Positions 1,411 through 30,952 of a DNA stretch of 35,750 nucleotides are shown piece after piece (the stretch's first letter is position 1; every line of letters starts with the position of its first letter). A program made the position numbers and the translations under genes. The DNA comes from a virus (Duplodnaviria; Heunggongvirae; Uroviricota; Caudoviricetes), in the IMG/VR virus record IMGVR_UViG_2698536335_000014, positions 1 to 35,750 of that record. The stretch is one strand, 5' to 3'. The notes under the pieces were generated by a model that worked only from the letters and a program-made list of their open reading frames with translations, had not been told where the DNA came from and ran no database searches.

Positions 1411-1892
1411 GACAGCAGCCCTCCCACCGTTTTACTGATATCGCTTAAGGCAGACGTTGCTGTGTCCTGCAGATTATTCAGTTGCGCACTGAGATCACCG
1501 AATATATCGGACAGGGATTCATCCACCCGTTTGAGCGACAGGGTGAACTCAATCCGGCGCGGCATACCGTCGCGGAAAAACTCCGTTTTAGTCTGATTCA
1601 GTCCCTCAATCACATACATGCCATAAATCGTGCCACTGCCTTCAATCAGGGGCCATGCTTTCCCCTGTTCTGCCATCTGCTCCAGTGCCAGCAACGACAG
1701 CCTGCCACCTGTTATCTCCGGCATAAGAACACCGGAAAGCGTCAGCATGTCGTTGTCCGGTCCCAGAAACTGCGTGGACGGACGTCGGTTTACCCGGCTG
1801 TTTGCCGCATGTCGCCAGCTGCGTTGATACTGCAGCTCCTGATACGGTACGGTGCGCAGCATAAACACGTACAATCCCAGCACCATCATCAT
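1407..1892 (-). CDS. U: tail protein gpU
   Basis: 161-aa ORF overlapping D start by 4 nt; P2 gpU-like by position and sequence. Confidence 0.85.
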   Translation of the reverse strand: MMMVLGLYVFMLRTVPYQELQYQRSWRHAANSRVNRRPSTQFLGPDNDMLTLSGVLMPEITGGRLSLLALEQMAEQGKAWPLIEGSGTIYGMYVIEGLNQTKTEFFRDGMPRRIEFTLSLKRVDESLSDIFGDLSAQLNNLQDTATSALSDISKTVGGLLS

Positions 1893-5974: not shown

Positions 5975-7147
5975 TTACGCGCTGACCTGGCTGGCGAAAT
6001 TCACCAGGTACTGATCGGTGATGCGCTGACGCAGCATCAGGTTTTCAAGTGGCGGCACTGGCGTGTAGTCGTAGTCGATGGTGAGTTTTCCGGCTTTCAG
6101 CGTGTCTTTGTCGTTCACCGACTCATCCAGCCAGCAATCACCACCAATGAGATAGCCCTGACTGACCAGGCTGCGCATTTTGGCGCGGATACCTTCGATA
6201 ATGTCGCGGGCCAGCGACGGGTTAAGCGGTTTATCCACCGCCCACATGTGTGCTTCTGCCATCGTGTCCATCAGCACCTGCGCCGTGCGGGTGTAGTTTT
6301 CGAAGGCAAAGAGCGGGTCATCACTCAGGCAGCGGGAACCCCAGAAGCGGAAACCGTCTTTACGCACAAGCGTGGTGACGTCGTTCTGGTTCAGCAGACC
6401 TGCATCGGTTGCCGGGTCCTGCAGATCCCAGAACACATCTGCAGAAATTCCGGTGACACCGTTCACGCCCACGTTGGACAGGCTTTTGTGCCATCCGGTC
6501 TGCTCGTCAATTTTGGCGCGCAGACCAAGCGCACGGGCGGTGGTATATGCCGTTGCTTCGGCATTCAGCACCGTGTCCCAGCCAGTAAAGTCAGGCCAGA
6601 TCAGCATCCCTTCGCGCTGGCTGAAGTTTTCGCGGTAAGTGATCGCCTCCTGCACTGTCTTGCAGCCATACGCTGACAGGTAAGCAAATCCACGCAGGCT
6701 TTGCGCCACGCTTAGCAACTCAGTAGCTACCGCCTTGGTGTCGTGGCCTGGCACGCCGAGAATGCGCGGTTTAACGCCGAGCTGTGACTGGGCAGATAAC
6801 AGGGCTTTCATACCTGTTTTTTTACCTTCAGCAGTCACTGCGCCGATGATATTGGTCGTGGTTTCGTCTTCCGTTTCACCCTGCGGCACACGCACAACAA
6901 TGGTCACGGGTTTTGCCTGGTCAGCGATGGCATCCAGCGAACGGGCCAGAGTACCTGACTCACCCGCTTTACCGCTGGCAGTCAGCACATCAGTGATCAG
7001 CACGGGTTTATTAAGAGGAAACATTTTTGCATCGGCATCATCGCCCGTGCAGACCATACCCACGATGGCGGTGCTCACCGTGGTAATGGATCGAGTGCCT
7101 TCGTTGACTTCAACAACGCGCACCCCGTGGTGGTAATCCTGAGCCAT
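5975..7147 (-). CDS. FI: contractile tail sheath protein gpFI
   Basis: 390-aa ORF, ATG start, P2 FI-like. Confidence 0.9.
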
Positions 7148-7223
7148 AGTGGCGAACCTCCTGATTGGATTAGGCTTCGCCCTATGTTGAAGTGATTGTG
7201 CCTGACAAACAGCTAAGCGCAGT

Positions 7224-7241
7224 TGTACCGTTATTCACACA
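7224..7241 (-). promoter_or_regulatory. candidate Ogr-dependent late promoter element upstream of FI (TGT-N12-ACA)
   Basis: TGTACCGTTATTCACACA centred about 85 bp upstream of the FI ATG; near-identical to the element upstream of O (TGTACCGACAACCACACA). Confidence 0.5.
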
Positions 7242-7289
7242 AAATGACGGTATTTGTCTGCTTTCAGGGATAATCAAAATAAAGCTGAT

Positions 7290-7862
7290 TCAGGGAGATT
7301 TATTGCTCTTATTTGCCGGAAATTTTCGATAAATGGTAGAAACGCCTACATCAAAAATCAGTGCAATACGCTGTCTTGATTCTCCGGCCTCGAGTAAACG
7401 CCCAATCTGTGCCCACTGTTCGCTGGTCAACTTAGGACGGCGTCCACCTACTCTGCCCTTAGCACGAGCTGCAGCCAGCCCCGCCCTGGTACGTTCAACT
7501 ATCAGTTCGCGTTCCATTTCAGCCAGGGCACCCATGACATGAAAAAAGAAACGGCCCATTGGGGTGCTGGTATCAATACTGTCAGTCAGGCTTCGGAAAT
7601 TCACGCCACGCTGGCGCAGCTCTTCTATCAGCGTAACAAGATGCCGCATACTGCGCCCCAGTCTGTCCAGCTTCCAGACAACCAGCGTGTCTCCTGCCGA
7701 TAGTGTCCTGAGCAGCTTTTTCAGCCCCGGTCTGTCGGACTTGGTGCCACTGATTTTATCCTCAAAAATCCGCTCACATCCCGCACAGTTCAGTGCATTG
7801 CGTTGCAAATCGGTGTTCTGGTCATTTGTTGACACGCGTACATAGCCAATAAGCATGATCAT
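7290..7862 (-). CDS. serine DNA invertase (Hin/Gin/Cin/Pin family), copy 1
   Basis: 190 aa; N-terminal resolvase catalytic domain (GYVRVSTNDQ with catalytic Ser) and C-terminal HTH; ATG start. Confidence 0.9.
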   Translation of the reverse strand: MIMLIGYVRVSTNDQNTDLQRNALNCAGCERIFEDKISGTKSDRPGLKKLLRTLSAGDTLVVWKLDRLGRSMRHLVTLIEELRQRGVNFRSLTDSIDTSTPMGRFFFHVMGALAEMERELIVERTRAGLAAARAKGRVGGRRPKLTSEQWAQIGRLLEAGESRQRIALIFDVGVSTIYRKFPANKSNKSP

Positions 7863-7911
7863 CCCCCTGAATAAAAACCGGAGATGATGCCAGTTAGCCG
7901 TTATCTCTGCA

Positions 7912-7937
7912 TTTTCATAAACGTTGGTTTGGGAGAA
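7912..7937. other. invertase crossover site 1 (hix/gix/cix-like)
   Basis: TTTTCATAAACGTTGGTTTGGGAGAA, about 50 bp upstream of the invertase start; inverted relative to sites 2 and 3; imperfect dyad of the TTCTCCTAAACCAAGG type. Confidence 0.6.
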
Positions 7938-8285
7938 GCGGCGAAAAGGGATGTGGGCACAGGAGAAAATCAGATACCGGATATGTCATCCTGGAAAAGA
8001 AATCCGAGTTCTAATCGCTGGAGAAAATTGCCTGATGGAACCATCATTCAAATGGGAATATCAGCATCAGGGCCATTAGGCTCACCTGTAAATATCACCC
8101 TGCCGATATCTTTCAGCAATACCAATTATTGTGTTGTTGCATCGTACGATAATGCACGGTCAGGTGTGTCAACAATGGTTAGTTTTGCAGCATTACCTGT
8201 TTCACCATCGCAATTTTCCCTGATGTCATCTGTGACTGAGCAAGGAATAAATCCTTTTGCTTACTGGATTGCTTTTGGAGATTGA
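7938..8285 (+). CDS. alternative tail-fibre C-terminal variable segment (Sv'-like), no start of its own
   Basis: Open frame runs through site 1 (..GLGE|AAKRD..) in the same phase as H at site 3 (..GLGE|GSALP..); it would fuse to the H constant part after inversion. Confidence 0.55.
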   Translation, partial: AAKRDVGTGENQIPDMSSWKRNPSSNRWRKLPDGTIIQMGISASGPLGSPVNITLPISFSNTNYCVVASYDNARSGVSTMVSFAALPVSPSQFSLMSSVTEQGINPFAYWIAFGD

Positions 8286-8708: not shown

Positions 8709-9282
8709 CATCCGGCGCGGTGCTGGTATCTGTTGCCGTCACCGCGTCAATGTAATCCAGCACGGCGTTAAGTCTGGTTGTTTCTGCCTGCGTCAGTTTA
8801 CGTCCGGCCTGTAATTTCAGCTGAATCAGACTAATGGAAGCCATTGCTGCATCAATCAGTGACTGGCGCTGTGCTTCTGCCGCGTCTACTGCGGCACTAT
8901 GCTGTGCCTCAGTATCTGTCACCCATTTCTCACCATCCCATTTATCGTATGGCGTTAACGGGACGATAGTGGTTGTATTTTCAGGGTAATCACCCGGAGC
9001 TGTGATTTCTTTTGATTCTCCCGTTTCGGTGTTATAGACAACTTCACCGCGATGGTCTGGCACATATTCCCATGAGTTAAAATCTGCAGAACGGCAGATT
9101 GCATAACCAGCTTTATGTGTAACTGGTGCATCTAAACAAGAACATGCCGGGATACCGACGCCAACCGCAAGATATTCAGTTGATGTGGAAATATATTCCC
9201 GCGTTTCACCATCATAATTATAAATGGTAATGTCTCCCGCTTTTATGGCAATGAGTTCGTTATTTAATACGGCTTTATTCAT
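8680..9282 (-). CDS. G: tail fibre assembly protein (gpG/U-like), full length
   Basis: 200 aa; ATG overlaps the stop of the upstream variable segment (TGATG); 3' end converges on and overlaps U'. Confidence 0.8.
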   Translation of the reverse strand: MNKAVLNNELIAIKAGDITIYNYDGETREYISTSTEYLAVGVGIPACSCLDAPVTHKAGYAICRSADFNSWEYVPDHRGEVVYNTETGESKEITAPGDYPENTTTIVPLTPYDKWDGEKWVTDTEAQHSAAVDAAEAQRQSLIDAAMASISLIQLKLQAGRKLTQAETTRLNAVLDYIDAVTATDTSTAPDVIWPELPEA

Positions 9283-9779
9283 CAGGCAGCTCTCACGATA
9301 TAATTAAAGGCAATGTTACGAGGACGGTTTTCGTTTGCAGTTGGAACAATTCTTGAAGCATCAAGGCCAATCACTTTTGGGTAAACAGCGCCATCTGTTC
9401 TTTCAGTCACCATACTTCTGATTAAGGAGAAATAACTATTGTTCGTTGAGGGATTCAAAGGCACCACTGCCCCCTTAAACGAGCCTACTGATTCCCATAT
9501 TGAATAATTTTCGGTGTTTACAGTCTTGAACTCACCATAGATATTACGTATGGCATCGCCCTGAGCGGATAATATTGCCCTCCCCGTATCCATACCACGT
9601 CCGTCATCCCAGCCACGAATAAACTCACCACGTAAATCAGGCAATTTATTTGTCGGGTAAGCCTTTGCCAGTTCTGGGTATTCTTCAGCAGAAAAAGCTG
9701 CTCCGTTGCATTTTAGCCAGCCTGTTGGCGGAGTGGCTGAGGGCCACGGAACAGGTACGCCAACAGGCAATGCTGAGCC
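9282..9779 (-). CDS. tail-fibre C-terminal variable segment A, copy inside the invertible segment (no start of its own)
   Basis: Identical to the C-terminal 166 aa of H (10979-12538); bounded upstream by site 2. Confidence 0.6.
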   Translation of the reverse strand, partial: GSALPVGVPVPWPSATPPTGWLKCNGAAFSAEEYPELAKAYPTNKLPDLRGEFIRGWDDGRGMDTGRAILSAQGDAIRNIYGEFKTVNTENYSIWESVGSFKGAVVPLNPSTNNSYFSLIRSMVTERTDGAVYPKVIGLDASRIVPTANENRPRNIAFNYIVRAA

Positions 9780-9805
9780 TTCTCCTAAACCAACGTTTAT
9801 GAAAA
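9780..9805. other. invertase crossover site 2
   Basis: TTCTCCTAAACCAACGTTTATGAAAA; its reverse complement matches site 1 except for one base. Confidence 0.6.
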
Positions 9806-9854
9806 TGCAGAGATAACGGCTAACTGGCATCATCTCCGGTTTTTATTCAGGGGG

Positions 9855-10427
9855 ATGATCATGCTTATTGGCTATGTACGCGTGTCAACAAATGACCAGA
9901 ACACCGATTTGCAACGCAATGCACTGAACTGTGCGGGATGTGAGCGGATTTTTGAGGATAAAATCAGTGGCACCAAGTCCGACAGACCGGGGCTGAAAAA
10001 GCTGCTCAGGACACTATCGGCAGGAGACACGCTGGTTGTCTGGAAGCTGGACAGACTGGGGCGCAGTATGCGGCATCTTGTTACGCTGATAGAAGAGCTG
10101 CGCCAGCGTGGCGTGAATTTCCGAAGCCTGACTGACAGTATTGATACCAGCACCCCAATGGGCCGTTTCTTTTTTCATGTCATGGGTGCCCTGGCTGAAA
10201 TGGAACGCGAACTGATAGTTGAACGTACCAGGGCGGGGCTGGCTGCAGCTCGTGCTAAGGGCAGAGTAGGTGGACGCCGTCCTAAGTTGACCAGCGAACA
10301 GTGGGCACAGATTGGGCGTTTACTCGAGGCCGGAGAATCAAGACAGCGTATTGCACTGATTTTTGATGTAGGCGTTTCTACCATTTATCGAAAATTTCCG
10401 GCAAATAAGAGCAATAAATCTCCCTGA
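9855..10427 (+). CDS. serine DNA invertase, copy 2 (protein identical to copy 1)
   Basis: 190-aa product identical to the 7290-7862 ORF; lies in the inverted duplication. Confidence 0.85.
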   Translation: MIMLIGYVRVSTNDQNTDLQRNALNCAGCERIFEDKISGTKSDRPGLKKLLRTLSAGDTLVVWKLDRLGRSMRHLVTLIEELRQRGVNFRSLTDSIDTSTPMGRFFFHVMGALAEMERELIVERTRAGLAAARAKGRVGGRRPKLTSEQWAQIGRLLEAGESRQRIALIFDVGVSTIYRKFPANKSNKSP

Positions 10428-10569
10428 ATCAGCTTTATTTTGATTATCCCTGAAAGCAGACAAATACCGTCATTTTGTGTGAATAACGGTACAACTGCGC
10501 TTAGCTGTTTGTCAGGCACAATCACTTCAACATAGGGCGAAGCCTAATCCAATCAGGAGGTTCGCCACT

Positions 10570-10691
10570 ATGGCTCAGGATTACCACCACGGGGTGCGCG
10601 TTGTTGAAGTCAACGAAGGCACTCGATCCATTACCACGGTGAGCACCGCCATCGTGGGTATGGTCTGCACGGGCGATGATGCCGATGCAAA
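10570..10691 (+). pseudogene. duplicated 5' fragment of FI (first ~40 codons, [17 protein letters not shown]...), truncated
   Basis: Exact inverted copy of the FI start region; ends at a breakpoint at 10691/10692. Confidence 0.75.
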
Positions 10692-10979
10692 CGGAGCTGT
10701 GATTTCTTTTGATTCTCCCGTTTCGGTGTTATAGACAACTTCACCGCGATGGTCTGGCACATATTCCCATGAGTTAAAATCTGCAGAACGGCAGATTGCA
10801 TAACCAGCTTTATGTGTAACTGGTGCATCTAAACAAGAACATGCCGGGATACCGACGCCAACCGCAAGATATTCAGTTGATGTGGAAATATATTCCCGCG
10901 TTTCACCATCATAATTATAAATGGTAATGTCTCCCGCTTTTATGGCAATGAGTTCGTTATTTAATACGGCTTTATTCAT
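10581..10979 (-). pseudogene. chimeric ORF: tail fibre assembly protein N-terminal 96 codons fused to antisense of the FI fragment
   Basis: Protein matches U through ..ESKEITAP, then reads through the breakpoint into sequence antisense to FI. Confidence 0.7.
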
Positions 10980-20980: not shown

Positions 20981-22747
20981 ATGAACACCACACTGACACC
21001 CGCAGATCTCGATCCCCGTCGGCAGGCCATGCTGCTGTACTTTCAGGGATACCGCGTAGCCCGCATTGCTGAAATGCTGGGCGAGAAAGTTGCAACCGTT
21101 CACAGCTGGAAAAAACGCGACAAGTGGGGTGACTATGGGCCGCTGGATCAGATGCAGCTCACCACTGCCGCACGCTACTGCCAGCTCATTATGAAGGAGC
21201 ACAAAGAAGGGAAAGATTTCAAAGAGATTGACCTGCTGGCGCGCCAGTCGGAGCGCCATGCGCGGATCGGCAAGTTTAACAATGGCGGCAACGAAGCCGA
21301 CTTAAACCCTAACGTCGCCAACCGCAACAAAGGCCCGCGCCGTCAGCCGGAAAAGAACGTTTTCACCGATGAACAGATTGAGAAGCTGGAAGAAATCTTC
21401 CATTCCTCCATGTTCAACTACCAGCGCCACTGGTGGGAAGCCGGAAAAACCAACCGCATCCGCAACCTGCTGAAGTCACGCCAGATCGGCGCGACCTTCT
21501 ATTTTGCCCGTGAAGCCCTGATTGACGCCCTGCTAACCGGGCGTAACCAGATTTTCCTTTCCGCCAGCAAGGCTCAGGCCCACGTCTTTAAGCAGTACAT
21601 CATCGACTTCGCCAAAGAAGTGGAGGTGGAGCTGAAAGGCGATCCGATGGTGCTTCCTAACGGGGCCACGCTGTACTTCCTCGGCACCAATGCCCGCACG
21701 GCCCAGAGTTACCACGGCAACCTGTATCTGGATGAATATTTCTGGATACCGAAATTCCAGGAGCTGCGCAAAGTGGCTTCCGGTATGGCTATTCACAAAA
21801 AATGGCGACAAACCTATTTTTCCACGCCATCCAGCCTGACACACAGTGCTTATCCGTTCTGGTCCGGTGCGCTGTTCAACCGAGGGCGCAACAAAGCCGA
21901 TAAGGTGGACATCGACCTGTCCCACAGCAATCTGGCCCCCGGCCTGCTGTGCGCAGACGGGCAATACCGCCAGATAGTCACCGTGGAAGATGCGGTGCGC
22001 GGCGGCTGTAACCTGTTCGACCTCGACCAGTTGCGCATGGAGTACAGCCCGGACGAATACCAGAACCTGCTGATGTGTGAGTTCGTGGACGATCTCGCGT
22101 CCGTGTTCCCGCTCAGCGAGCTGCAGGCGTGTATGGTGGACAGTTGGGAAGTCTGGACCGACTTTCATGCACTGGCCCTGCGCCCGTTTGGCTGGCGCGA
22201 GGTGTGGATCGGTTATGACCCGGCAAAAGGTACGCAGAACGGCGACAGCGCCGGATGCGTGGTGATGGCACCGCCAGCCGTGCCAGGCGGTAAGTTTCGC
22301 ATTCTTGAGCGTCACCAGTGGCGCGGGATGGACTTCCGCGCCCAGGCTGACGCCATCAAAAAACTGACCGAACAGTACAACGTGACCTATATCGGCATCG
22401 ACTCAACAGGTGTCGGTCACGGGGTTTACGAGAACGTGAAAGCGTTCTTTCCTGCCGTCCGGGAGTTTGTCTACAACCCCAACGTTAAAAACGCCCTGGT
22501 ACTCAAAGCCTACGACATTATCAGTCACCGTCGTCTGGAGTTTGACGCCGGACACACCGACATAGCGCAGTCATTTATGGCAATCCGTCGCGCCACCACC
22601 GCCAGTGGCAACCGCCCGACCTATGAAGCCAGCCGCAGCGAAGAAGCCAGCCACGCCGATCTGGCCTGGGCAACGATGCACGCACTGTTTAACGAACCGC
22701 TGCAGGGCGAGTCCGCCAATACCAGCAATATTGTGGAGATTTTTTGA
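20981..22747 (+). CDS. P: terminase large (ATPase) subunit gpP
   Basis: 588 aa, ATG start; P2 gpP-like. Confidence 0.9.
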   Translation: MNTTLTPADLDPRRQAMLLYFQGYRVARIAEMLGEKVATVHSWKKRDKWGDYGPLDQMQLTTAARYCQLIMKEHKEGKDFKEIDLLARQSERHARIGKFNNGGNEADLNPNVANRNKGPRRQPEKNVFTDEQIEKLEEIFHSSMFNYQRHWWEAGKTNRIRNLLKSRQIGATFYFAREALIDALLTGRNQIFLSASKAQAHVFKQYIIDFAKEVEVELKGDPMVLPNGATLYFLGTNARTAQSYHGNLYLDEYFWIPKFQELRKVASGMAIHKKWRQTYFSTPSSLTHSAYPFWSGALFNRGRNKADKVDIDLSHSNLAPGLLCADGQYRQIVTVEDAVRGGCNLFDLDQLRMEYSPDEYQNLLMCEFVDDLASVFPLSELQACMVDSWEVWTDFHALALRPFGWREVWIGYDPAKGTQNGDSAGCVVMAPPAVPGGKFRILERHQWRGMDFRAQADAIKKLTEQYNVTYIGIDSTGVGHGVYENVKAFFPAVREFVYNPNVKNALVLKAYDIISHRRLEFDAGHTDIAQSFMAIRRATTASGNRPTYEASRSEEASHADLAWATMHALFNEPLQGESANTSNIVEIF

Positions 22748-23784
22748 TGGGAAAGAGTAAGAAAAACCGCGCTGCGGCGACGAATCAGCTCAAGCATAAA
22801 AGCCAGACTTCAGCCGAAGCATTCAGCTTCGGTGATCCCGTTCCTGTACTTGACCGCCGCGAACTGCTGGACTATGTGGAATGCGTACAGACAGATCGCT
22901 GGTATGAGCCTCCTGTCAGCTTTGACGGACTGGCGCGCACCTTCCGCGCTGCCGTGCATCACAGTTCACCAATTGCGGTGAAATGCAACATTCTGACCAG
23001 CACCTACATCCCTCACCCGCTGCTCAGCCAGCAGGCTTTTTCGCGTTTTGTACAGGACTATCTGGTTTTTGGTAACGCCTACCTGGAAAAACGCACGAAC
23101 CGCTTCGGAGAGGTCATCGCTCTTGAGCCTGCGCTGGCAAAATACACCCGACGCGGGTTAGACCTGGATACCTACTGGTTTGTGCAATATGGTATGACAA
23201 CCCAGCCGTATCAGTTCACGAAAGGCAGCATCTTTCATCTGTTGGAACCGGACATCAACCAGGAGATCTACGGCCTGCCCGGTTATCTTTCTGCCATTCC
23301 GTCCGCTCTGCTCAACGAGTCCGCCACGCTGTTCCGCCGGAAGTATTACATTAACGGTAGTCATGCAGGCTTCATCATGTACATGACCGATGCCGCGCAA
23401 AACCAGGAGGATGTGAACAACCTCCGCAACGCAATGAAAAGCGCCAAAGGTCCAGGCAACTTCCGCAACTTGTTTATGTACTCGCCTAACGGTAAAAAAG
23501 ACGGGCTTCAGATCATCCCATTGTCAGAAGTCGCGGCGAAGGATGAATTTCTTAACATCAAGAACGTGAGTCGGGATGACATGATGGCAGCGCATCGCGT
23601 GCCGCCGCAAATGATGGGGATTATGCCTAATAATGTCGGGGGGTTTGGGGATGTGGAAAAAGCCGCTCGCGTTTTTGTACGTAACGAACTGCAGCCATTG
23701 CAGAAACGTATGTGCGAACTGAACGAATGGATTGAGGAAAAAGTAATAAATTTTGAAGCGTATCAGCTCTCAATTGAGCAATAA
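22747..23784 (+). CDS. Q: portal protein gpQ
   Basis: ATG at 22747 overlaps the P stop (TGATG); track ORF starts at TTG 22744; P2 gpQ-like. Confidence 0.9.
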   Translation: MGKSKKNRAAATNQLKHKSQTSAEAFSFGDPVPVLDRRELLDYVECVQTDRWYEPPVSFDGLARTFRAAVHHSSPIAVKCNILTSTYIPHPLLSQQAFSRFVQDYLVFGNAYLEKRTNRFGEVIALEPALAKYTRRGLDLDTYWFVQYGMTTQPYQFTKGSIFHLLEPDINQEIYGLPGYLSAIPSALLNESATLFRRKYYINGSHAGFIMYMTDAAQNQEDVNNLRNAMKSAKGPGNFRNLFMYSPNGKKDGLQIIPLSEVAAKDEFLNIKNVSRDDMMAAHRVPPQMMGIMPNNVGGFGDVEKAARVFVRNELQPLQKRMCELNEWIEEKVINFEAYQLSIEQ

Positions 23785-23818
23785 CTCTCAAATAGCTGAA
23801 TAAGCCCGCAAAAGCTAA

Positions 23819-23840
23819 CCTATAGATCAGGGTCTATAGG
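23819..23840. terminator. candidate bidirectional hairpin terminator between convergent Q and the cargo operon
   Basis: cctataga-tcaggg-tctatagg: 8-bp perfect stem, 6-nt loop, followed by TTTAT; overlaps the stop codon of the 215-aa ORF. Confidence 0.35.
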
Positions 23841-24467
23841 TTTATGATGTAATGATACAGGATAATGCACAACTTGATAATCCAGCTTACTTACAGTATG
23901 AAGGTGCTGACTATAAAAAACCAAGGGGTTTTTTGGGCAATCAATAATATTAACGGATTTACAAGCATGAATCCTAGGTGCATTCTTTGATAAGAATGTT
24001 TTCCATGAATCCATCATGTCAGAACAGGAAGCGTTTTTCGTATAAATAATTAAACCACCCGAAGAGCTATTTATAGTCCCAGTACTATACCGCTCGGTAA
24101 GTTGTGCATAACCTTTAAAAAGATATAAATATGAAGAATGTTTTTTAGCTTCCCCATGCCAGATATAATCTGCAAGGGTAATAGATATATCACAATGTCC
24201 TCTCTGGTTCTTCTCGTGACTGGCTTCGAGCCCCAGATATCTATTTTCAATATACGAAAGCAAATATAGAGTTAACTGATCTTCAGAGAGATCAAAGTTA
24301 ATTTTATTGCCATTTTGCTCTAATTTACTTACAGCGTAATCCAGCTCCTTTCGAACAAGACTGTTGAAATTAGAATAGGACTCCAACGCAAATTGAATCC
24401 TTTGAATGGCAAAGTGAACCTTCTGCAAATGAAAGTTTTTCTCCAAATCATCCAGACTTGTAAGCAT
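23820..24467 (-). CDS. hypothetical protein, third gene of the AT-rich cargo operon
   Basis: 215 aa, ATG start overlapping the upstream stop (translational coupling); no motif I recognise. Confidence 0.7.
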   Translation of the reverse strand: MLTSLDDLEKNFHLQKVHFAIQRIQFALESYSNFNSLVRKELDYAVSKLEQNGNKINFDLSEDQLTLYLLSYIENRYLGLEASHEKNQRGHCDISITLADYIWHGEAKKHSSYLYLFKGYAQLTERYSTGTINSSSGGLIIYTKNASCSDMMDSWKTFLSKNAPRIHACKSVNIIDCPKNPLVFYSQHLHTVSKLDYQVVHYPVSLHHKPIDPDL

Positions 24468-24895
24468 TAGTACGCCCCTTCCTTTGTGAAATTAATAACT
24501 GTAAAGAAAGGAAATACATATTTTTTGTAGTCTGGCACAATCTCACCAGTATATGGATGCTCTAAACCTTGATTATCTTCAGCATCAATCACGTCCGCAA
24601 TGCTTATATTAACTGGATCGAAACCATCGTCTATAAATTGATAGTTTAATTTCAAAAAATTAACTTTTGGATTACACAAAACTTGGATAGCCAAGTAAAT
24701 ATCATGCTCATCCACTTTAGCGCCCCCCTTATTCGAAATCGCTATATCAAATAAAAGGTTATAACTAATGAATATATTAGGAGAGCGAGCTGCTAACTTT
24801 GCAAGTTTTTCATAAAACATGCACGCCAAAACTCCCACTTCTGGGCGTTCTGAGCATATGTCTTGTATAGTCTTTGCCAAGTTAGCATCCTTCAT
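24467..24895 (-). CDS. hypothetical protein, second gene of the AT-rich cargo operon
   Basis: 142 aa, ATG start 12 bp downstream of the first gene; no motif I recognise. Confidence 0.7.
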   Translation of the reverse strand: MKDANLAKTIQDICSERPEVGVLACMFYEKLAKLAARSPNIFISYNLLFDIAISNKGGAKVDEHDIYLAIQVLCNPKVNFLKLNYQFIDDGFDPVNISIADVIDAEDNQGLEHPYTGEIVPDYKKYVFPFFTVINFTKEGAY

Positions 24896-24907
24896 TTTTG
24901 TCTCCAG

Positions 24908-26014
24908 CTATAGTATCAGCTTCGTAAGCGTTTCGAAATCATCACGAGAGATACATTTACTAAGTATAGCAAAATTCACTGGTGAACCAGAGCTTCCACT
25001 AAGGTACCGTCTTAGCGTTCCTGGTATAGTAAGTTCTACATTGTCCGCTAACTGTAGTAAAGGATTTGTTCGCTCAACCCTGATGCCTATCCTATAAAGT
25101 CCGATATTGCCTACGGCTTTAATACCTTCTTGATTGAAGATATCTTGTCTCAAATCTTTAGTGGAGTCAGTTTTCCTTTCCTTATGTGTTGTCCCTTCAG
25201 GGGTAAGGAATGAAAGCTCAAAAACTTTATAATTAAGAGTTGAGTATGGTTTTTGATCTTGCTTAAAGATTGGTTCAATCAAGGGAAAGAAATCTCTTTC
25301 TTTTGATGCAAACTCAGCACCTATAATATTATAAAGTTCTCTTACTACAGTACTCTTTGCAAACAAGACGCTCTCACCTATTGTATTAATACCTGCATCT
25401 ATCAAAATAGAGATAGTAGAGTTGGTCTTATTAAAAATGCACACATCAAAACATTGATGCTTTTCTTTTTTAGTAGCAATGATCTCTTCGTAGCCACTGT
25501 ACTGCGGTAAACTTTTAGGCGAAATCCGCTCTCTAATTTTTTGCTCTCTAACGGAACTAAATAGAGCTAAAGCCTGATTATTGCTCTCAGAATAATGAAC
25601 TAAGTTTATTTTATTCTTCCCCGACGCATTAATTTCCTGCTCAGAAAGGATTACATCTGAGGCGACAGAAGGCTGTTCAGATAAATCCCACTTTAATTTC
25701 ATAGCCTTTGTTAGCGAGGAAATTATTTGGTTGTCTACTGATAAACAAAAAAAAGCTTTATCACCGTAGACCAATTGACCAAATATTAAATTATTTACAG
25801 ACCTTATGATATCATTAAATTTATTTAAATTCTTTTCCTTTAATTCTGTTAATTCTTCCAGTATTTTTCCATGAGTAGCATCTCTACCTTTACCACGAGC
25901 TAATCCAAGAGCTGAAATAACAGGTTTTGCCACGTTCCATGGAAATCTCGTGATTAGTGTCAAAATGGATTTCATTTCTGCTTCACTAAGTACTACTGGG
26001 ACATTTCCTGTCAT
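24908..26014 (-). CDS. hypothetical protein, first gene of the AT-rich cargo operon
   Basis: Track ORF starts at GTG 26041; first ATG at 26014 (MTGNVPV..); about 370 aa; no Walker A, HEPN or other motif I recognise. Confidence 0.7.
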   Translation of the reverse strand: MTGNVPVVLSEAEMKSILTLITRFPWNVAKPVISALGLARGKGRDATHGKILEELTELKEKNLNKFNDIIRSVNNLIFGQLVYGDKAFFCLSVDNQIISSLTKAMKLKWDLSEQPSVASDVILSEQEINASGKNKINLVHYSESNNQALALFSSVREQKIRERISPKSLPQYSGYEEIIATKKEKHQCFDVCIFNKTNSTISILIDAGINTIGESVLFAKSTVVRELYNIIGAEFASKERDFFPLIEPIFKQDQKPYSTLNYKVFELSFLTPEGTTHKERKTDSTKDLRQDIFNQEGIKAVGNIGLYRIGIRVERTNPLLQLADNVELTIPGTLRRYLSGSSGSPVNFAILSKCISRDDFETLTKLIL

Positions 26015-26157
26015 CTTAATTACCTGTTGAAATTGCAACACAAGGTCGTCTTCGGGAGATCAATGGGAGTATTCCAATAACTTACCCAGGTATAGGAGTG
26101 CTTTCAAGTCTAAGACTATCTTCTGTCTAACAGCGCATGTTTTCATCTAAGCGCGCG

Positions 26158-26176
26158 CTCGTATCCCCGCCACGCC
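26158..26176 (-). other. candidate cos cohesive-end sequence
   Basis: Minus strand reads GGCGTGGCGGGGATACGAG; the first 13 nt match the GC-rich 19-nt cohesive end of 186/P2 as I recall it (GGCGTGGCGGGGAAAGCAT / GGCGAGGCGGGGAAAGCAC); sits in a 416-bp non-coding gap. Confidence 0.45.
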
Positions 26177-26457
26177 TGCCCGCTTTATGTAGTGGTTTTC
26201 ATGCACCTGCATGACATGAGTAAAAGCCCGCCGGTTCTGGCAGGTCTCTGCAAAAACGAGCCTCAATTGATCATGCGATTTCATGCAGCATAGTCATGCA
26301 CAGCCAAGGGAAGCGTAAATCCGTATCAGAATGACCGCTGAAAAGCGAATCATAAGGGTTTACAAAGATGAAACTCCGCTGTGAGCGAAAAGCGGACGTT
26401 GGAAGTTTAAAACTCGCGAACTACTCAGCGTCCATTGATGCGTATTGTGTAACGTGA

Positions 26458-27102
26458 TTAACCACAGATGATATTGAAACGTTCTCCGGAAATCTTGACC
26501 ATAATGTCAGACAGTTTGCTGACGGCATGGGCTTCAGATGATCCCAGAGCGTCAGGCTGAACAGCTATTACCGAAGCTCCACTTGCCAGCCCTGCTTTTA
26601 TACCCGCAGATGCATCCTCAAATACCACGCATTCACCAGGCTCAAGGCCCAAAGCCAAAGCTGCTTTGATGTAACCCTCGGGACTTGGTTTTCCCGTCAT
26701 TACATCTTCTGCACACACCATTACTATGGGTAAGGGGAGATTAGCCGCTTTCATCCTGTTTTCGGCAAGCATTCTGCCTGCAGAAGTGACAAGTGCCCAG
26801 CTATCCGGTGGCAGTTTTGATAAGAGTGCAGCGGCCCCTTTTACTTCAGTAACGCCTTCTGTCGTGTTGATTTCAACCTCTTCGAGTGAGGCCGCGATTT
26901 TATTGGTTTTCTCACCTGCACCAATAAAATGCGTTAGTGTATCAATCGTTTGCCGCCCGTGTGCGTAAGCAATCACAGCCTGAGAATCAAGACCGTATTC
27001 TGCACAAAAATCTCTCCAGACGCTTTCCACTACGGCTGTTGAATCAACCAGCGTACCGTCCATATCGAATAAAAAACCCTTAGCGTTGAATATCATTGCC
27101 AT
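26458..27102 (-). CDS. HAD-superfamily phosphatase (YfbT-like sugar phosphatase / beta-phosphoglucomutase family)
   Basis: 214 aa; N-terminal FDMDGTLVDS motif (DxDGT) and conserved C-terminal E-D-A-G motif; resembles E. coli YfbT as I recall it. Confidence 0.8.
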   Translation of the reverse strand: MAMIFNAKGFLFDMDGTLVDSTAVVESVWRDFCAEYGLDSQAVIAYAHGRQTIDTLTHFIGAGEKTNKIAASLEEVEINTTEGVTEVKGAAALLSKLPPDSWALVTSAGRMLAENRMKAANLPLPIVMVCAEDVMTGKPSPEGYIKAALALGLEPGECVVFEDASAGIKAGLASGASVIAVQPDALGSSEAHAVSKLSDIMVKISGERFNIICG

Positions 27103-27125
27103 TCCTTAATGGTTGCAGAAGAAAG

Positions 27126-27764
27126 TTAATCAAACCATGTTTTTTCATCACCTTTCGCTACTCTCAGGCTGACAGCAATCTGCTCAGGCACAATTCTTGA
27201 AAGCGACAATTCAGGCAGGTCGTTGACATCAAAAAAATCAGCATCGAGTGACTCATGGCTGATTGACAGGCTGCCACCTACTTCTTCACAGAGAAAAATC
27301 AGCTTGTAAACATGCCAGGGTAAAGGCGGATGGCCGTGAAGATTACGATCCCAAACTCCCAATAGTTTAGTCACTCTGACTTTTAATCCGGTTTCTTCTT
27401 CGACCTCTCGACGCACAGCTTCAGAAGGTGTATCTCCAACATCTGCCCATCCGCCAGGAAGACTCCATAATCCATCTGCAGCCTCTTTCACCATCAGAAT
27501 ACGATTATTACGCAGGATAAACGCACGCACATCTGTTTTGGGCGTCGCGTAACCCGTTTCCGATACATGAAACAAATCATTGCGGCTAATATCAAACTGC
27601 GAACTCAGCAGTCCAGCGGCAATTTCACGCAAGGCTTCATAGCGTTCCTTGTCAAAGACGTCTTTTGAATAGGTCAGGCCTGACTGCGCGAGGGCCTTTA
27701 GTCTCTGGGCAACAAAAATAAGCTTTTCTTGGGTCAACACTTCAGACATGTTTTTCATCTTCAT
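27126..27764 (-). CDS. NUDIX hydrolase
   Basis: 212 aa; Nudix box GGWADVGDTPSEAVRREVEEETGL (GX5EX7REUXEEXGU pattern). Confidence 0.85.
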   Translation of the reverse strand: MKMKNMSEVLTQEKLIFVAQRLKALAQSGLTYSKDVFDKERYEALREIAAGLLSSQFDISRNDLFHVSETGYATPKTDVRAFILRNNRILMVKEAADGLWSLPGGWADVGDTPSEAVRREVEEETGLKVRVTKLLGVWDRNLHGHPPLPWHVYKLIFLCEEVGGSLSISHESLDADFFDVNDLPELSLSRIVPEQIAVSLRVAKGDEKTWFD

Positions 27765-27840
27765 TTATGTATTCAGAGTTCCTGTTAAGGATACTGCTCA
27801 ATTCAATGAAGAATAACAAATGCATCTGGCACCTGCTATG

Positions 27841-27862
27841 TCCGCTTCTGGCACAAAGCGGA
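27841..27862. terminator. possible hairpin downstream of the DinI-like gene
   Basis: tccgctt-ctggcaca-aagcgga: 7-bp stem; no clear U-tract. Confidence 0.25.
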
Positions 27863-27951
27863 CGATCATTTATCAAAATGACCGCCCACCTTATTTCACT
27901 CGTTGTCCAAACTAACCTCCATCAGAATAAATTCTCTTGGGGCAACGTTTC

Positions 27952-28185
27952 TTAATGCAGCCAGCTGTCGTCTTCCCACACCTTCTGCATAATTTTCATC
28001 ACTTGTTTTCTTTCTTCGTCCAGTTGCAGTCCTGTCAGTTCCACACCGTTAGAGCTACCTTTGCGGATGCGAATTACCGTTTTGGGATACAGGGGGCGCA
28101 GATTGCGGTAAAGCTCGGATTCAAGGGCGTCCAGGATAGACTGGCTAATCTTCTGCTCTTTATCGATCATTATTTCAATGCGCAT
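27952..28185 (-). CDS. DinI-family protein (Tum C-terminal-domain-like)
   Basis: ATG 28185 with SD gaggtg; MRIEIMIDK...WEDDSWL resembles E. coli DinI as I recall it (MRIEVTIAK...WESADDWF). Confidence 0.8.
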   Translation of the reverse strand: MRIEIMIDKEQKISQSILDALESELYRNLRPLYPKTVIRIRKGSSNGVELTGLQLDEERKQVMKIMQKVWEDDSWLH

Positions 28186-28195
28186 AAAAGTCACC

Positions 28196-28384
28196 TCAGC
28201 TGATGACATCCATTGAGCGGTTGTATTCGTGGGTTCTGATTTTTGCCATGAGTTCATCTGTTAGTTCAGAAACCCACTGCAGAGCCAGCCCCTTCTCTTC
28301 ATCACTACACTCACTAGCCGCTACAAGCTTAAGAAAAAAATCAATGCGCTGGAGCTTCAAAGACTCCAAAAAATAGTCCTGCAT
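28196..28384 (-). CDS. small SOS-regulated protein (possible Tum-like antirepressor component)
   Basis: 62 aa from ATG 28384 with strong SD aggagg; a LexA box lies 44 bp upstream; first gene of a two-gene operon with the DinI-like gene. Confidence 0.5.
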   Translation of the reverse strand: MQDYFLESLKLQRIDFFLKLVAASECSDEEKGLALQWVSELTDELMAKIRTHEYNRSMDVIS

Positions 28385-28427
28385 CTTTCCTCCTATGACA
28401 CCACAAGAAATACTGTATGTATAACCA

Positions 28428-28443
28428 CTGTTTATATTTACAG
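28428..28443. promoter_or_regulatory. LexA box (SOS operator)
   Basis: CTGTTTATATTTACAG fits CTGT-N8-ACAG with an AT-rich spacer, upstream of the 62-aa/DinI-like operon. Confidence 0.6.
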
Positions 28444-28537
28444 TATATAATAATCTTACTGATGTAAAACGTTTTTTTACGTTCATCAGCCTGATATGCC
28501 TGGTATTATTAAGAGCACGAATTGTTAACCCGCGTAA

Positions 28538-30952
28538 TTAATACAGATCCCGCCACTTATCATCTTCCTGCAAACGCTGGTTCCGATAGAAGATACGCAG
28601 GCCTGATCCTGACGGAATACTGCCACCGCGAAGGAGTAAATCGACCTCTTTCTCGCTGCCGTCAAATCCTCTGGACTTCAGTTCATAGACAAGCTGCTGT
28701 CGCTGATGGTCTGTAATTCGCTGTTTGTAGTCTTTACGCCGTTTCGGTTTCACCAGGCGTAATCTTGCTGTCAGTTCCCGGCGCTCTTTTTTGCTCATAC
28801 TGTGCAGGTAATCGTGCAACTCCTTGTCATTCATACGGGTGATATCCGTTCTGGTATCCCCATCAGCTGATTTGTCTTTCCCTTGTTGGGGCAAATTTTC
28901 AGTAAGGGGACAGTTATTGCCACGAGTCCAAGGGGCGCAAGCGCCCTGGTCGGCTGCCGCCTCCTGAACGTCAACGGCTTTACGAACCATTTTCCACTTC
29001 ACTGCATGAGTGCAGATCTTGCCCTCTGCAATGGGTGACCAGATGCCATAAATACGAATGCCGTGATCGCCATAGGCGGTCGGCTCTTCGTTGATTTCAT
29101 AAGCGGTTCTGATGAGGTGATATTTACGGGGAACCAGTACGCCGCCCTGCTTCATGATGTAGGTGGCAAAACAACCAGCATCAGCAGCAGCCAGGATGGC
29201 ATCAAGGCGCGGGTTATCCAGTACCGGCGCACCTGCTTTTTTGTCCCCCTTTTGCCTTGCCGCCTGACCAGCCAGCAATCGCAGTTCACGGTAAGCCTGA
29301 CGCCCCGGAATGCCAAAGAAGCGGAATTGCTGAACACGATGCAAAGACGCCCAGGCATTCACGTATTCAGCGTTATCACGCAGAGATTTACCCGTTTCCT
29401 TGCTGATCTCGCCAGCCAGACCACGCCCGTCAATGTTCTTACTGATGTATTTCGCTATGTAGCTTGTCGGCGTTCCTTTGCGCGGGTTAATCAGCTCAGA
29501 CTTAAAGCGCGGCCCCGTGTTATTGCCCAGCTCCTCGCGGTCTTCACGGATAGCAAACTTACGCAACAATGCTGTAATGGCGCGGCGGTCTTTTTTGCGC
29601 ATGAAACACAACAGGTGCCAGTGAACGGCGCCGTCGTGATGCGGCTCAGCCACCCGCACGCCATACCAGCGCAACCCGGCTTTGTGCATCGCCTTACGAA
29701 ATGCAGCAAACATACCGACCAGATAATCGCTGCTTTGTCTTACCGTCGCATTTGTCCAGGTCGGGTTGGGCCTGCCGTTATTTAGCGTGGAATGGAAACG
29801 TGACGGACAGGTGATGGTGTAGAAAACGGCGCAGTCACCGCGCATTTCCGCGATAAGCTCCAGACCTTTAACACAGGCCATCATCTCATTGCGGCGATGC
29901 GCAGGGTTGCTGCTGCTGGCGTTTACCACATCCTCCATGTCTAGCGTGTCGCCGTCTTCGTTCACCAGTTCATGAGAACGGAAAAACTCCAGCGACTTAC
30001 GGCGCTGCTCACGTTTATGCAACACGGCTTCATAGCTGACATAGGGAGATGCTTTTTTGCTGACAAGGCAGACAGCACGCAACTGCTCTTCCCGCCATTC
30101 GCAACGCATCTTCCATAATTTCCGATACCACCAGTCGGCGCACAACATACGCGCCAGCGAACCCGGAATGAGTTCATAGGGCACGGGTTTACGGCGGTTT
30201 CTTTTCCGGCGGAGTTGCTCAAACGCAGGCGGGATGACATCCAGACGCAGGGTTTCCGCTGCCACCCTTTCCCATGTATTGCGGATTTCTTCTGGCTTAA
30301 CGTCATCGGTGGCATACAAATCGCCACAAGCGGCATCAAGGCACATACTCATATGCGCAGCTACCAGGGTGGACAGGCGTTTCACCTGATCCTGACTCAT
30401 TTCAGGCAGGATCAGCAGGCCGTCCAGCCCTTCATGGCTTGCCATAAAGCGAAAAGATGCAGACAGCTGACTGTCGCGTACATGCTCCAGTCGTTCCAGA
30501 CATGGCTTAATCGTCTCACGTAAGTAGCGGGAATAAGCCTTTGGCCTGCCCAGGCTGCTGAAGTATTCAATACGTTGCATCAGCGGCTTGCTGATATGGG
30601 AAGGCTGGGCGTTGACGTCCGCCAGAATGACCATATCCGGATTAAAACGCTGCTGCTCATGCGCCAGCTTTGCCCGACTAATGAGCTTATCCTGTTCCAT
30701 TTCGCGCTGGACAGGATCACGGGATTCATTAAAGAAATAACGCTCCCAGACCTGATCACTCAGCGCCTCACGGCGCAGCTGTTCCTGCTCGTTATCGGCA
30801 GCGTACAGAGTGATCAGGTTTGAAAGCGTAGAAACCGGCGCAACTTCCACCGGGTCCAGATAAGGGTTAATGGCCTTTTTCGAGCTGTTCCATGAGAACG
30901 ATGCGGCAGCTTCGTTAAAGCCGCAGCAGTTGTTCATATCGGCATGACTCAT
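28538..30952 (-). CDS. A: replication initiation endonuclease gpA (rolling-circle initiator)
   Basis: 804 aa, ATG start overlapping the dam stop; P2/186 A-like by size and position; ori expected inside the coding region. Confidence 0.85.

Follow-up and report, generated by a model that had tools for sequence, protein, structure and literature searches.

The closest described setting for the locus reported here is the old/tin hotspot of P2-like phages, the cos-proximal region that runs from the portal gene Q to the replication gene A (PMC9122126; PMC13586616). The most recent large study of P2/P4 hotspots counted among its open questions how exchange with other mobile elements takes place, and it makes no mention of palindromes (PMC13586616). 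Tn3-family transposons are known to exchange passenger modules at res site I (PMC7157771), and in Photorhabdus a ParE/RelE operon has a duplicated 24-bp palindrome around it (PMC13617665). The DNA analyzed here, called the window throughout, is the whole stretch of 35,750 nucleotides of the IMG/VR record IMGVR_UViG_2698536335_000014 (Caudoviricetes), and its subject is a pair of adjacent prophage genes, coding for a NUDIX hydrolase and a HAD phosphatase, that is bounded by two short palindromes, A and B. Inverted repeats of a second variable region of P2, the Z region, were reportedly deposited in 2003-2004 (GenBank AJ512683 and AJ512685) by Nilsson, Karlsson and Haggard-Ljungquist, the title of whose 2004 paper (Mol Biol Evol 21:1) is said to invoke site-specific recombination. 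In coliphage 186, a LexA-repressed promoter drives the DinI-related antirepressor Tum.

We put at roughly 60% the probability that the pair is a host-derived accessory operon, with a chemistry that would degrade nucleoside diphosphates linked to a moiety X (NDP-X), and that it is carried by temperate phages as a mobile cassette. The NUDIX gene was found at 27126-27764 and the HAD gene at 26458-27102, both on the minus strand, inside a P2-like prophage recognized by gpA (Phage_GPA, E 2e-126), portal, terminase, Dam methylase, CI repressor and tail genes; its backbone is 96% identical to the Klebsiella phages KP12 and 4LV2017. Along the minus strand, gene A is followed by a LexA box, a 62-amino-acid open reading frame (ORF), a DinI-like gene, palindrome A, NUDIX, HAD, palindrome B, a terminator-like hairpin and a cos-like 19-mer. 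The whole cassette, palindromes included, covers 26375-27863 (1,489 bp, minus strand). The sequence-only reading had placed the two genes between cos and an SOS module in a variable, defence-rich locus. Both ORFs are indeed present, with the cos-like 19-mer on one side of them and the LexA box and DinI-like gene on the other, and the locus is a known hotspot, holding a retron in 4LV2017 and DprA in E. coli E2348/69 (PMC9122126).

Operons of NUDIX and HAD genes ~85-90% identical to the pair occur in chromosomal contexts outside phages, and on these grounds the cassette was shown to be a host operon recently captured from an enterobacterium. The enterobacterial chromosomal operons (HAD protein identity 72-89%) have the same 24-nt palindromes on either side. 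One contig from outside phages (L119) aligns with window positions 27864-26365, palindrome to palindrome, at 89.7% identity, and its NUDIX and HAD genes have an epimerase/short-chain dehydrogenase pair on one side and a biotin carboxylase on the other. In two other relatives a GGACT-family gene (gamma-glutamyl cyclotransferase-like; L016 4982-5317, L120 3083-3409) precedes NUDIX and HAD inside the palindrome-bounded unit, and GGACT-NUDIX-HAD may represent a three-gene ancestral operon; in two more (L011, L012) the pair adjoins integrases. The synonymous divergence (dS) from chromosomal orthologues was similar for the two genes (0.57 and 0.52), which argues that NUDIX and HAD were inherited together. 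The ratio of nonsynonymous to synonymous divergence (dN/dS) against these orthologues was ~0.10 for NUDIX and 0.11-0.17 for HAD, as under purifying selection, and across chromosomal lineages the pair was kept together under such selection over dS >2. An alternative raised earlier from the DNA alone, a host fragment present at this position without the prophage, is not literally what was found, although NUDIX and HAD do derive from a host operon of which copies occur apart from phages.

The cassette is at least 99.3% identical over exactly 26375-27863 in 22 of 5,426 complete E. coli genomes (0.4%). It is present in Peduovirus P24C9 and phage 10W (three phage records in all) and in 11 of 2.9 million IMG/VR contigs, and no close copy was found among PLSDB plasmids. 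The copies fall into five contexts, with a near-invariant interior: the cos-DinI slot of the window, which is the only example of the cassette found at this position; the P2 Z/fun slot of Peduovirus P24C9 and phage 10W, where tail-fibre assembly gene G and sheath gene FI are the neighbours; the lambdoid nin region, with a DUF977 gene on one side and hokD on the other; a lambdoid prophage end beside paoABCD; and an integrase/ankyrin island. The G+C content of the pair is 0.45-0.48 (~47%), compared with ~55% for the structural-gene backbone.

Conservation at this position was checked in relatives, as the sequence-only reading had proposed, and the pair proved to be accessory cargo rather than backbone, the flanks being kept while the content differs. 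KP12 shares 23001-26299 and everything from 27954 on with the window, and a gene for a 225-amino-acid lipoprotein replaces the pair; 4LV2017 likewise shares both flanks and has the lipoprotein gene in the pair's place; E. coli P2-like prophages have a small DUF8087/hypothetical gene in the same sub-slot. The predicted lipoprotein (MKINNVALPISLAVILTGC...; PHROG 1353, no Pfam match) is encoded at 6351-7028 of the KP12 stretch (L003) and at 6067-6744 of the 4LV2017 stretch (L004), and no A or B palindromes flank its gene in either phage. A search of E. coli genomes with concatenated flanks gave no contiguous empty site for the lambdoid slot, which was always occupied.

Palindrome A, the upstream boundary of the cassette (27840-27863, minus strand), has an 8-8-8 structure, GTCCGCTT-TGTGCCAG-AAGCGGAC, and palindrome B, the downstream boundary (26375-26398, minus strand), reads GTCCGCTT-TTCGCTCA-CAGCGGA(G). 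The two are 24 nt each, with the same arms and different loops, and the reverse complement of B resembles A. Two such palindromes were observed in the window versus 0.05 expected. Single-strand folding gave -8.4 kcal/mol for A (z -4.0) and -5.8 kcal/mol for B (z -2.9); B lacks a T run, and the terminator-like hairpin nearest to it (26244-26227) is outside the cassette. In chromosomal relatives (L016, L119, L120) B also lies downstream of HAD, and the palindromes recur in a REP-like manner at other intergenic positions (four copies in 7.9 kb of L120, three in L009). A full-text search of the papers available returned none containing the palindrome sequence, and an Rfam search of 26000-28600, at E values up to 1, returned no riboswitch or known RNA.

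When the five contexts were compared, it was observed that the outer palindrome arm varies with the backbone and that the rest of the palindrome, its loop and inner arm, goes with the cargo. The cos-DinI slot of the enteropathogenic E. coli strain E2348/69 has a different small gene, on the other strand, between a B-like and an A-like site, a layout common to 132 E. coli genomes, and the stretches of homology with the window (26150-26400 and 27841-28300) extend as far as the palindromes and into them. Between E2348/69 and the window, which have the same backbone and different cargo, the differences begin at loop base 5 and proceed inward; where the same cargo lies in different backbones, the differences are in the outer arm and, in one case, at loop base 1. 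By these comparisons the exchange point for A falls among the few bases at its centre (TGTG|CCAG), and the pattern for B is similar. Around the Z-region insert of P2-EC67, the annotated 'left/right inverted repeats' end in A and begin with B, and the P2 fun(Z) gene itself lies between B and A.

A scan of IMG/VR with one exact 16-mer, comprising the A loop and inner arm, returned at least 119 stretches, from which 1.09 Mb was retrieved; the counts that follow are of loci selected for the A loop, in which related phages are counted repeatedly. Complete palindromes made up 81 of the 117 A-loop occurrences among the matches listed, and 97 of 99 neighbouring classified site pairs were co-oriented. 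The retrieved 1.09 Mb contained at least 262 palindromes of the A/B family, in two loop classes. Sites in the order A then B enclosed at least 59 intervals of 455-3988 bp, which yielded at least 39 distinct cargo clusters of 1-4 genes each, and sites in the order B then A formed at least 16 close doublets of 16-28 bp. The cassette has the same A...B syntax, its A and B being co-oriented and within the 0.45-4 kb range. At least six further cargos among the matches listed occurred next to two different backbones, joined to them at the palindrome.

The cargo between A and B was of two kinds. Defence-type cargo comprised PD-T7-1, PD-T7-5, PDC-S06, PDC-S35, type IV restriction enzymes, DarT/DarG, the Aga nuclease and NsnA, as well as HEPN, TIR, GmrSD and Mrr proteins; ordinary chromosomal-type cargo comprised LysR regulators, ChaC, GNAT acetyltransferases, glyoxalase, zinc dehydrogenase and HxlR. 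Four stretches (L150 at 979-3960, L159, L233 and L234) were observed to hold tandem arrays of two to four short cassettes with B-spacer-A doublets of ~65 nt, the doublet spacer being loosely conserved (CCTTCAGCTCAGT...), in a layout that may be called reminiscent of integron arrays or of doublets of repetitive extragenic palindromic (REP) elements.

It is a tentative proposal, which we hold at somewhat less than even odds, that A and B are the crossover sites of an uncharacterised site-directed cassette-exchange system that shuttles defence and metabolic gene sets. Such a system would be shared by P2-like phages, lambdoid phages, genomic islands and some enterobacterial chromosomes. The gene sets between co-oriented A and B sites would be swapped as units, with crossover at the central GC, and tandem cassettes would be set apart by the B-spacer-A doublets of ~65 nt. 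DarTG, PD-T7-1, PD-T7-5, type IV restriction, HEPN/TIR and metabolic operons would be among the sets shuttled, with NUDIX-HAD as a recent passenger. The A/B half-site may resemble a resolvase half-site. Three known classes of element were considered for the palindromes and rejected. They resemble neither the E. coli REP element and its mosaic form (BIME) nor the integron attC site, judged against what we take the respective consensus sequences to be. Hairpin ends of the IS200/IS605 or RAYT type did not fit, as the crossover is at the palindrome centre rather than beside the hairpin and there is no such transposase gene nearby.

The NUDIX product, 212 amino acids as listed, has a Nudix_N helical domain (PF12535, E 7.6e-18, residues 14-61) followed by a NUDIX domain (PF00293, E 7.9e-19, residues 77-184), both assigned by Pfam; its start is likely at 27749 (MSEV..., 207 amino acids), as in all chromosomal orthologues. 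A search of PDB sequences gave full-length matches to B. cereus CDP-Chase (3q1p/6nch, E 7e-50, the top match), an S. suis protein (3o8s, E 4e-42) and the S. pneumoniae UDP-X diphosphatase SP_1669 (4hfq, E 2e-37). The domain order (Nudix_N then NUDIX) and the size (~205-212 amino acids) are the same as in CDP-Chase and SP_1669. The published family motifs outside the Nudix box are G-U-x-ar-x2-D-x-ar-D-x-[ED]-R-ar, YxTP and LPxLS (PMC3655063). All four family motifs are present in the window protein, as the helix-loop-helix GLTYSKDVFDKERY, the hinge YATP, LPELS and the extended Nudix box GWADVGDTPSEAVRREVEEETGL, and the first three of these are invariant among the enterobacterial homologues. The Nudix box GGWADVGDTPSEAVRREVEEETGL fits REUxEE, with R119, E120, E123 and E124 invariant in the homologue alignment; it has R in place of the K of the family motif. 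With its catalytic motifs complete and its reading frame intact, the protein is by motif and domain assignment a member of the CDP-Chase/UDP-X diphosphatase family.

Activities described for Nudix_N proteins are the hydrolysis of CDP-choline, UDP-MurNAc and UDP-MurNAc-L-Ala and a 3'-5' RNA exonuclease activity, and a description from 2013 limits the family to Gram-positive bacteria (PMC3655063); an asymmetric homodimer is a further trait of the family. Homologues of the NUDIX protein numbered 5,366 at E <=1e-10, the nearest being in Cedecea, Pseudescherichia, Leclercia, Pantoea, Enterobacter and Kluyvera; the nearest named ones are chromosomal, at ~70% identity. The Gram-positive restriction has been overtaken by later sampling, and the family is widespread in Enterobacterales. 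The enterobacterial clade has an invariant block of its own, WDRNLHGHPPxPWHVYK, unlike the Gram-positive CDP-Chase/UDP-X members. Among phages the subfamily is approximately this clone alone, the 11 IMG/VR contigs with it being all 100% identical.

The HAD product, 214 amino acids as listed, is a HAD-IA phosphatase (PHROG 8468) with Pfam matches to HAD_2 (E 5.5e-22, profile positions 2-178 of 178) and Hydrolase (E 2.4e-16), and it scored 59.6 bits against TIGR01509 (HAD-SF-IA-v3), for which the cut-off is 29.4 bits. Its motifs I-IV are readable (DMDGT, LVTSAG, GKPSPE, FEDASAG), the catalytic residues are present (D13-M-D15-G-T17, T106/S107, K138, E161-D162) and the frame is intact. A second ATG at 27096 has AAGGA 8 nt before it, inside the 23-nt NUDIX-HAD spacer, and is the start used by RefSeq; it is likely the true start, with a product of 212 amino acids. 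The best NCBIfam match was PRK11587 (NF008610), 'sugar phosphatase', at E 6e-56 and 189.2 bits, versus an equivalog cut-off of 282 bits. By these profile scores the protein is a paralogue of the YfbT/HxpA-type sugar phosphatases and not a YfbT orthologue. It has motifs I-IV and a similar size in common with E. coli YfbT/HxpA, within the beta-phosphoglucomutase-like subfamily IA. The closest solved structure by PDB sequence search is yeast glycerol-3-phosphatase (2qlt, E 1.6e-22). Relatives of the HAD protein at 57% identity or more are rare and nearly all from metagenome contigs, and the next tier, at ~50-55% identity, is mostly actinobacterial; a query of GTDB species-representative genomes returned no close relative, with a best match of 54% in Leifsonia.

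From these data we favour a model in which one chromosomal unit, bracketed by palindromes, entered the phage gene pool; it is now present, with little change, in at least five slots, in P2-like prophages, lambdoid prophages and one island. We infer that the cassette moves by exchange at its two palindromes, because the recipient slots already hold A and B around other cargo and because the switch from backbone to cargo sequence falls in the central few palindrome bases. The NUDIX enzyme would cleave an NDP-linked alcohol or sugar, most likely CDP-X or UDP-X, to the nucleoside monophosphate and X-phosphate, and the YfbT-like HAD enzyme would then remove the phosphate to give X and inorganic phosphate, which would make the degradation irreversible. 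This predicted two-step breakdown draws on family membership and on the conserved adjacency of the two genes. The pair is treated here as accessory, moron-type cargo of modest or conditional value.

The cassette is directly downstream of, and co-oriented with, the operon formed by the LexA box, the small ORF and the DinI-like gene, and it is upstream of the operon's likely terminator; because of this arrangement it would probably be transcribed by read-through on SOS induction. The LexA-box palindrome CTGTTTATATTTACAG (28428-28443) is a perfect CTGT-N8-ACAG, the single occurrence in the 35.7-kb window, and lies 44 nt upstream of the ATG of the small ORF. Promoter hexamers near it are weak. The other contexts have the cassette co-oriented with early or late lytic transcription.

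A number of observations weigh against this model or parts of it. With regard to expression, a scan of 25900-28600 found no sigma-70-like promoter, and read-through past a weak hairpin at 27839-27813 and past palindrome A has to be assumed. With regard to chemistry, the S. suis member of the NUDIX family had weak activity on dinucleotide polyphosphates only in a screen of 74 substrates (PMC5158307), and the HAD protein falls below the YfbT equivalog cut-off. More distant homologues of the two genes are also found apart, NUDIX without HAD in L009 and Pseudescherichia vulneris and HAD without NUDIX in L017, L020, L021 and L121, and any functional coupling between them would be lineage-specific. 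Several copies are damaged: phage 11W has a decayed, gapped remnant in the Z/fun slot (L115 1501-2831, 70-88% identity, annotated merely 'similar to hypothetical protein'), which implies a residence in P2-like phages of sufficient length for the cassette to decay; one copy has an internal HAD deletion; an IS3 insertion removed the NUDIX gene of another; and in one genome NUDIX is annotated only as an N-terminal-domain protein. Within the 18 full copies, HAD has 7 nonsynonymous and 7 synonymous variable sites, a sign of weak selection. As to the mode of movement, no recombinase for A and B is consistently adjacent to the sites, and the junctions could also arise by recombination through short homology between conserved 24-mers. 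Were there such a recombinase, serine invertases and resolvases, the gene at 7290-7862 among them, would be the first candidates.

The strongest of the competing explanations, though we would give it only about one chance in five, is that the cassette is a neutral hitch-hiker that spreads solely through exchange-prone palindromes, confers no benefit and is decaying. The disrupted copies, which occur in at least four lineages, speak for it, and it is consistent with the low prevalence of the cassette, the derivation of all phage-borne copies from one recent clone, the half of within-clone HAD substitutions that are nonsynonymous, and the many kinds of ordinary chromosomal genes that the A/B system moves. 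However, both frames are intact in 18 of ~23 copies, NUDIX is near-invariant within the 18 full copies (1 nonsynonymous and 3 synonymous variable sites), and the selection that has maintained the pair across chromosomal lineages was purifying. It may be added as a general consideration that the limited capsid space of P2-type phages should select against useless DNA.

A role in anti-phage defence or superinfection exclusion appears unlikely, and more so than neutral carriage. The pair would drain UDP-glucose, UDP-GlcNAc/MurNAc or a CDP-alcohol, and rival phages would lose a receptor or the sugar donor for DNA modification. The hotspots in which the cassette lies are rich in defence systems, a different HAD-type hydrolase together with a transmembrane protein protects against T7 (PMC9122126), the family substrates are cell-envelope precursors (PMC3655063), the same A and B sites bound DarTG, PD-T7-1, PD-T7-5, type IV restriction enzymes and HEPN/TIR proteins, and NUDIX has a weak PADLOC match to the candidate system PDC-S07. 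The same sites also enclose LysR regulators, ChaC, GNATs, glyoxalase and dehydrogenase, however, and with cargo so mixed guilt by association is weak and location alone says little. Defence, anti-defence and an effect on host nucleotide pools had all been raised in the sequence-only reading, and none of them gained support. No link to defence or anti-defence emerged: a PADLOC-DB 2.0 search of the pair and five neighbours gave no specific defence match, with nothing for HAD and, for NUDIX, only the match to PDC-S07 (36.8 bits), which covers the generic Nudix domain. In the portion of the Rousset 2022 P2 hotspot tables that was available, neither a 'NUDIX' entry nor the N-terminal peptides of the two proteins were found (PMC9122126). 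Both genes have close chromosomal relatives in non-phage contexts, and the closest of these stand in ordinary metabolic neighbourhoods. The low prevalence (0.4% of E. coli genomes) and the several decayed copies also argue against defence, as does the orientation of the cassette, which in every context is that of lytic or SOS transcription, with no lysogenic promoter found.

The least probable explanation, which we regard as improbable, is counter-defence at induction or in lytic growth, with NUDIX hydrolysing ADP-ribose (ADPR), cyclic ADPR isomers or an NAD-derived signal and HAD removing a phosphate: the position behind a LexA box, the co-orientation with lytic transcripts in every context, the label 'ADP-ribose pyrophosphatase YjhB' on homologues (a COG-style name, not an assay) and the comparative-genomic prediction that Nudix and phosphatase pairs process ADPR derivatives in virus-host conflicts (PMC9503650) speak for it, but the characterised Nudix_N members act on CDP-choline and UDP-MurNAc(-Ala), which are not the nucleotide-derived signals once suggested as substrates (PMC3655063), the S. 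suis protein, whose deposited name is ADPR pyrophosphatase, had no such preference in the 74-substrate screen (PMC5158307), the HAD protein is sugar-phosphatase-like rather than nucleotidase-like, and the NUDIX subfamily is essentially missing from phages beyond the one clone (11 of 2.9 million IMG/VR contigs). A link to the NAD+ reconstitution pathway was considered separately and rejected, as Nudix appears in the NARP3 paper solely in connection with KVP40 NatV, of which it is a domain. The host-derived NDP-X operon, cassette model included, is thus ranked first, followed by neutral carriage, defence or exclusion, and counter-defence.

The neighbours of the cassette are for the most part conserved with related phages. 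The DinI-like gene (27952-28185, minus strand; 77 amino acids from the ATG at 28185; Pfam DinI E 2.4e-22; PHROG 189) is directly upstream on the same strand, and the same gene (234 nt) is annotated in KP12 and E2348/69. The small ORF, the first gene past the LexA box (28196-28384, minus strand, 62 amino acids; PHROG 698, unknown function), is annotated as a 189-nt gene in KP12, 4LV2017 and E2348/69, and the module of LexA box, small ORF and DinI-like gene is conserved in these three. The gpA replication gene is at 28538-30952 and portal gene Q at 22744-23784. Between the cassette and the cos-like site there is a terminator-like GC hairpin with a T run (26227-26244, minus strand), in a segment conserved with KP12 and 4LV2017. 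The cos-like 19-mer (26158-26176; its reverse complement reads GGCGTGGCGGGGATACGAG), likewise in a segment conserved with these phages, agrees at 14 of 19 positions (5 mismatches) with what we take to be the P2 cos overhang; a search with the P2 19-mer in that presumed form gave no match at three or fewer mismatches. The segment 26158-26176 is assigned as a putative cos.

Three AT-rich genes lie between the portal gene and the cos-like site (23820-26041, minus strand, overlapping or abutting; 215, 142 and 377 amino acids). Their G+C content is ~36%, compared with 55% for the backbone, they belong to PHROGs 9664, 11490 and 12777, all of unknown function, and no Pfam, NCBIfam or PADLOC match was obtained for them; their N-terminal peptides had no match in the part of the Rousset 2022 supplements that was available. 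They are present in KP12 and replaced by the retron in 4LV2017, and they are regarded as a candidate three-gene defence system. In the E2348/69 P2-like prophage (L133 1-813), the DprA gene is found to the portal side of cos, where it illustrates turnover; it is probably part of the DprA-PRTase defence system that Rousset 2022 validated.

The prophage also has an invertible tail-fibre segment. A 913-bp perfect inverted repeat (7026-7938 and 9779-10691), with an identical gene for a 190-amino-acid serine invertase (Resolvase and HTH_7) in each arm, encloses 1.8 kb of tail-fibre C-terminal and assembly genes, and a 109-nt perfect direct repeat is present at 8995-9103 and 10692-10800. The 913-bp repeat reflects either a genuine duplication of the invertase on both sides of an invertible host-range segment or an artefact of assembling a population in which both orientations were present.

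The enzymes themselves matter little, as one more unexplained metabolic-type moron, beyond showing that a Nudix family called Gram-positive-only is common in Enterobacterales. The enzyme families, the hotspot and the Z-region inverted repeats were already known, and the A/B syntax is the lead of higher potential interest. Near-identical in five unrelated contexts, the cassette serves as a tracer that marks exact cut and join points in temperate-phage hotspots. Should a specific mechanism act on A and B, it would explain the fast movement of accessory and defence genes among P2-like phages, lambdoid phages and chromosomes. It would also provide a simple sequence rule by which to delimit cargo and find new defence candidates in thousands of prophages, and would supply the mechanism that the P2/P4 hotspot work lists as open (PMC13586616).

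Compared with the known systems, the location of the pair is that of the P2 old/tin hotspot, from portal gene Q to replication gene A (PMC9122126; PMC13586616); within it, the pair's sub-slot follows the DinI-like gene and lies between gpA and the cos-like site. The slot of the P2 Z/fun-region cargo is occupied by the cassette in Peduovirus P24C9, with the same A and B flanks; unlike that cargo, the A/B sites and the cassette also turn up in the cos-DinI slot, lambdoid prophages, an island and chromosomes. As in the SOS module of coliphage 186, which we take to have this arrangement, the window has a LexA box and then a DinI-family gene beyond gene A, towards cos; compared with Tum, the DinI-like protein is short (77 amino acids), and a separate ORF of 62 amino acids precedes it. 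Like phage morons, the pair is present or absent between conserved neighbours, has a deviant G+C content and is co-oriented with flanking transcription, whereas its slot shows replacement of other content rather than simple insertion, and its boundaries are palindromes common to many cargos rather than a promoter/terminator pair. By description only, the cargo can be likened to that of Tn3 res, Photorhabdus and integron arrays in being delimited by short palindromic sites. In integron arrays the likeness extends to tandem cassettes, between which the A/B sites lie as B-spacer-A doublets, and not to attC. Like res site I of Tn3, hybrid A/B sites show exchange at the site centre; unlike Tn3 elements and integrons, the A/B sites occur without an associated resolvase or integrase.

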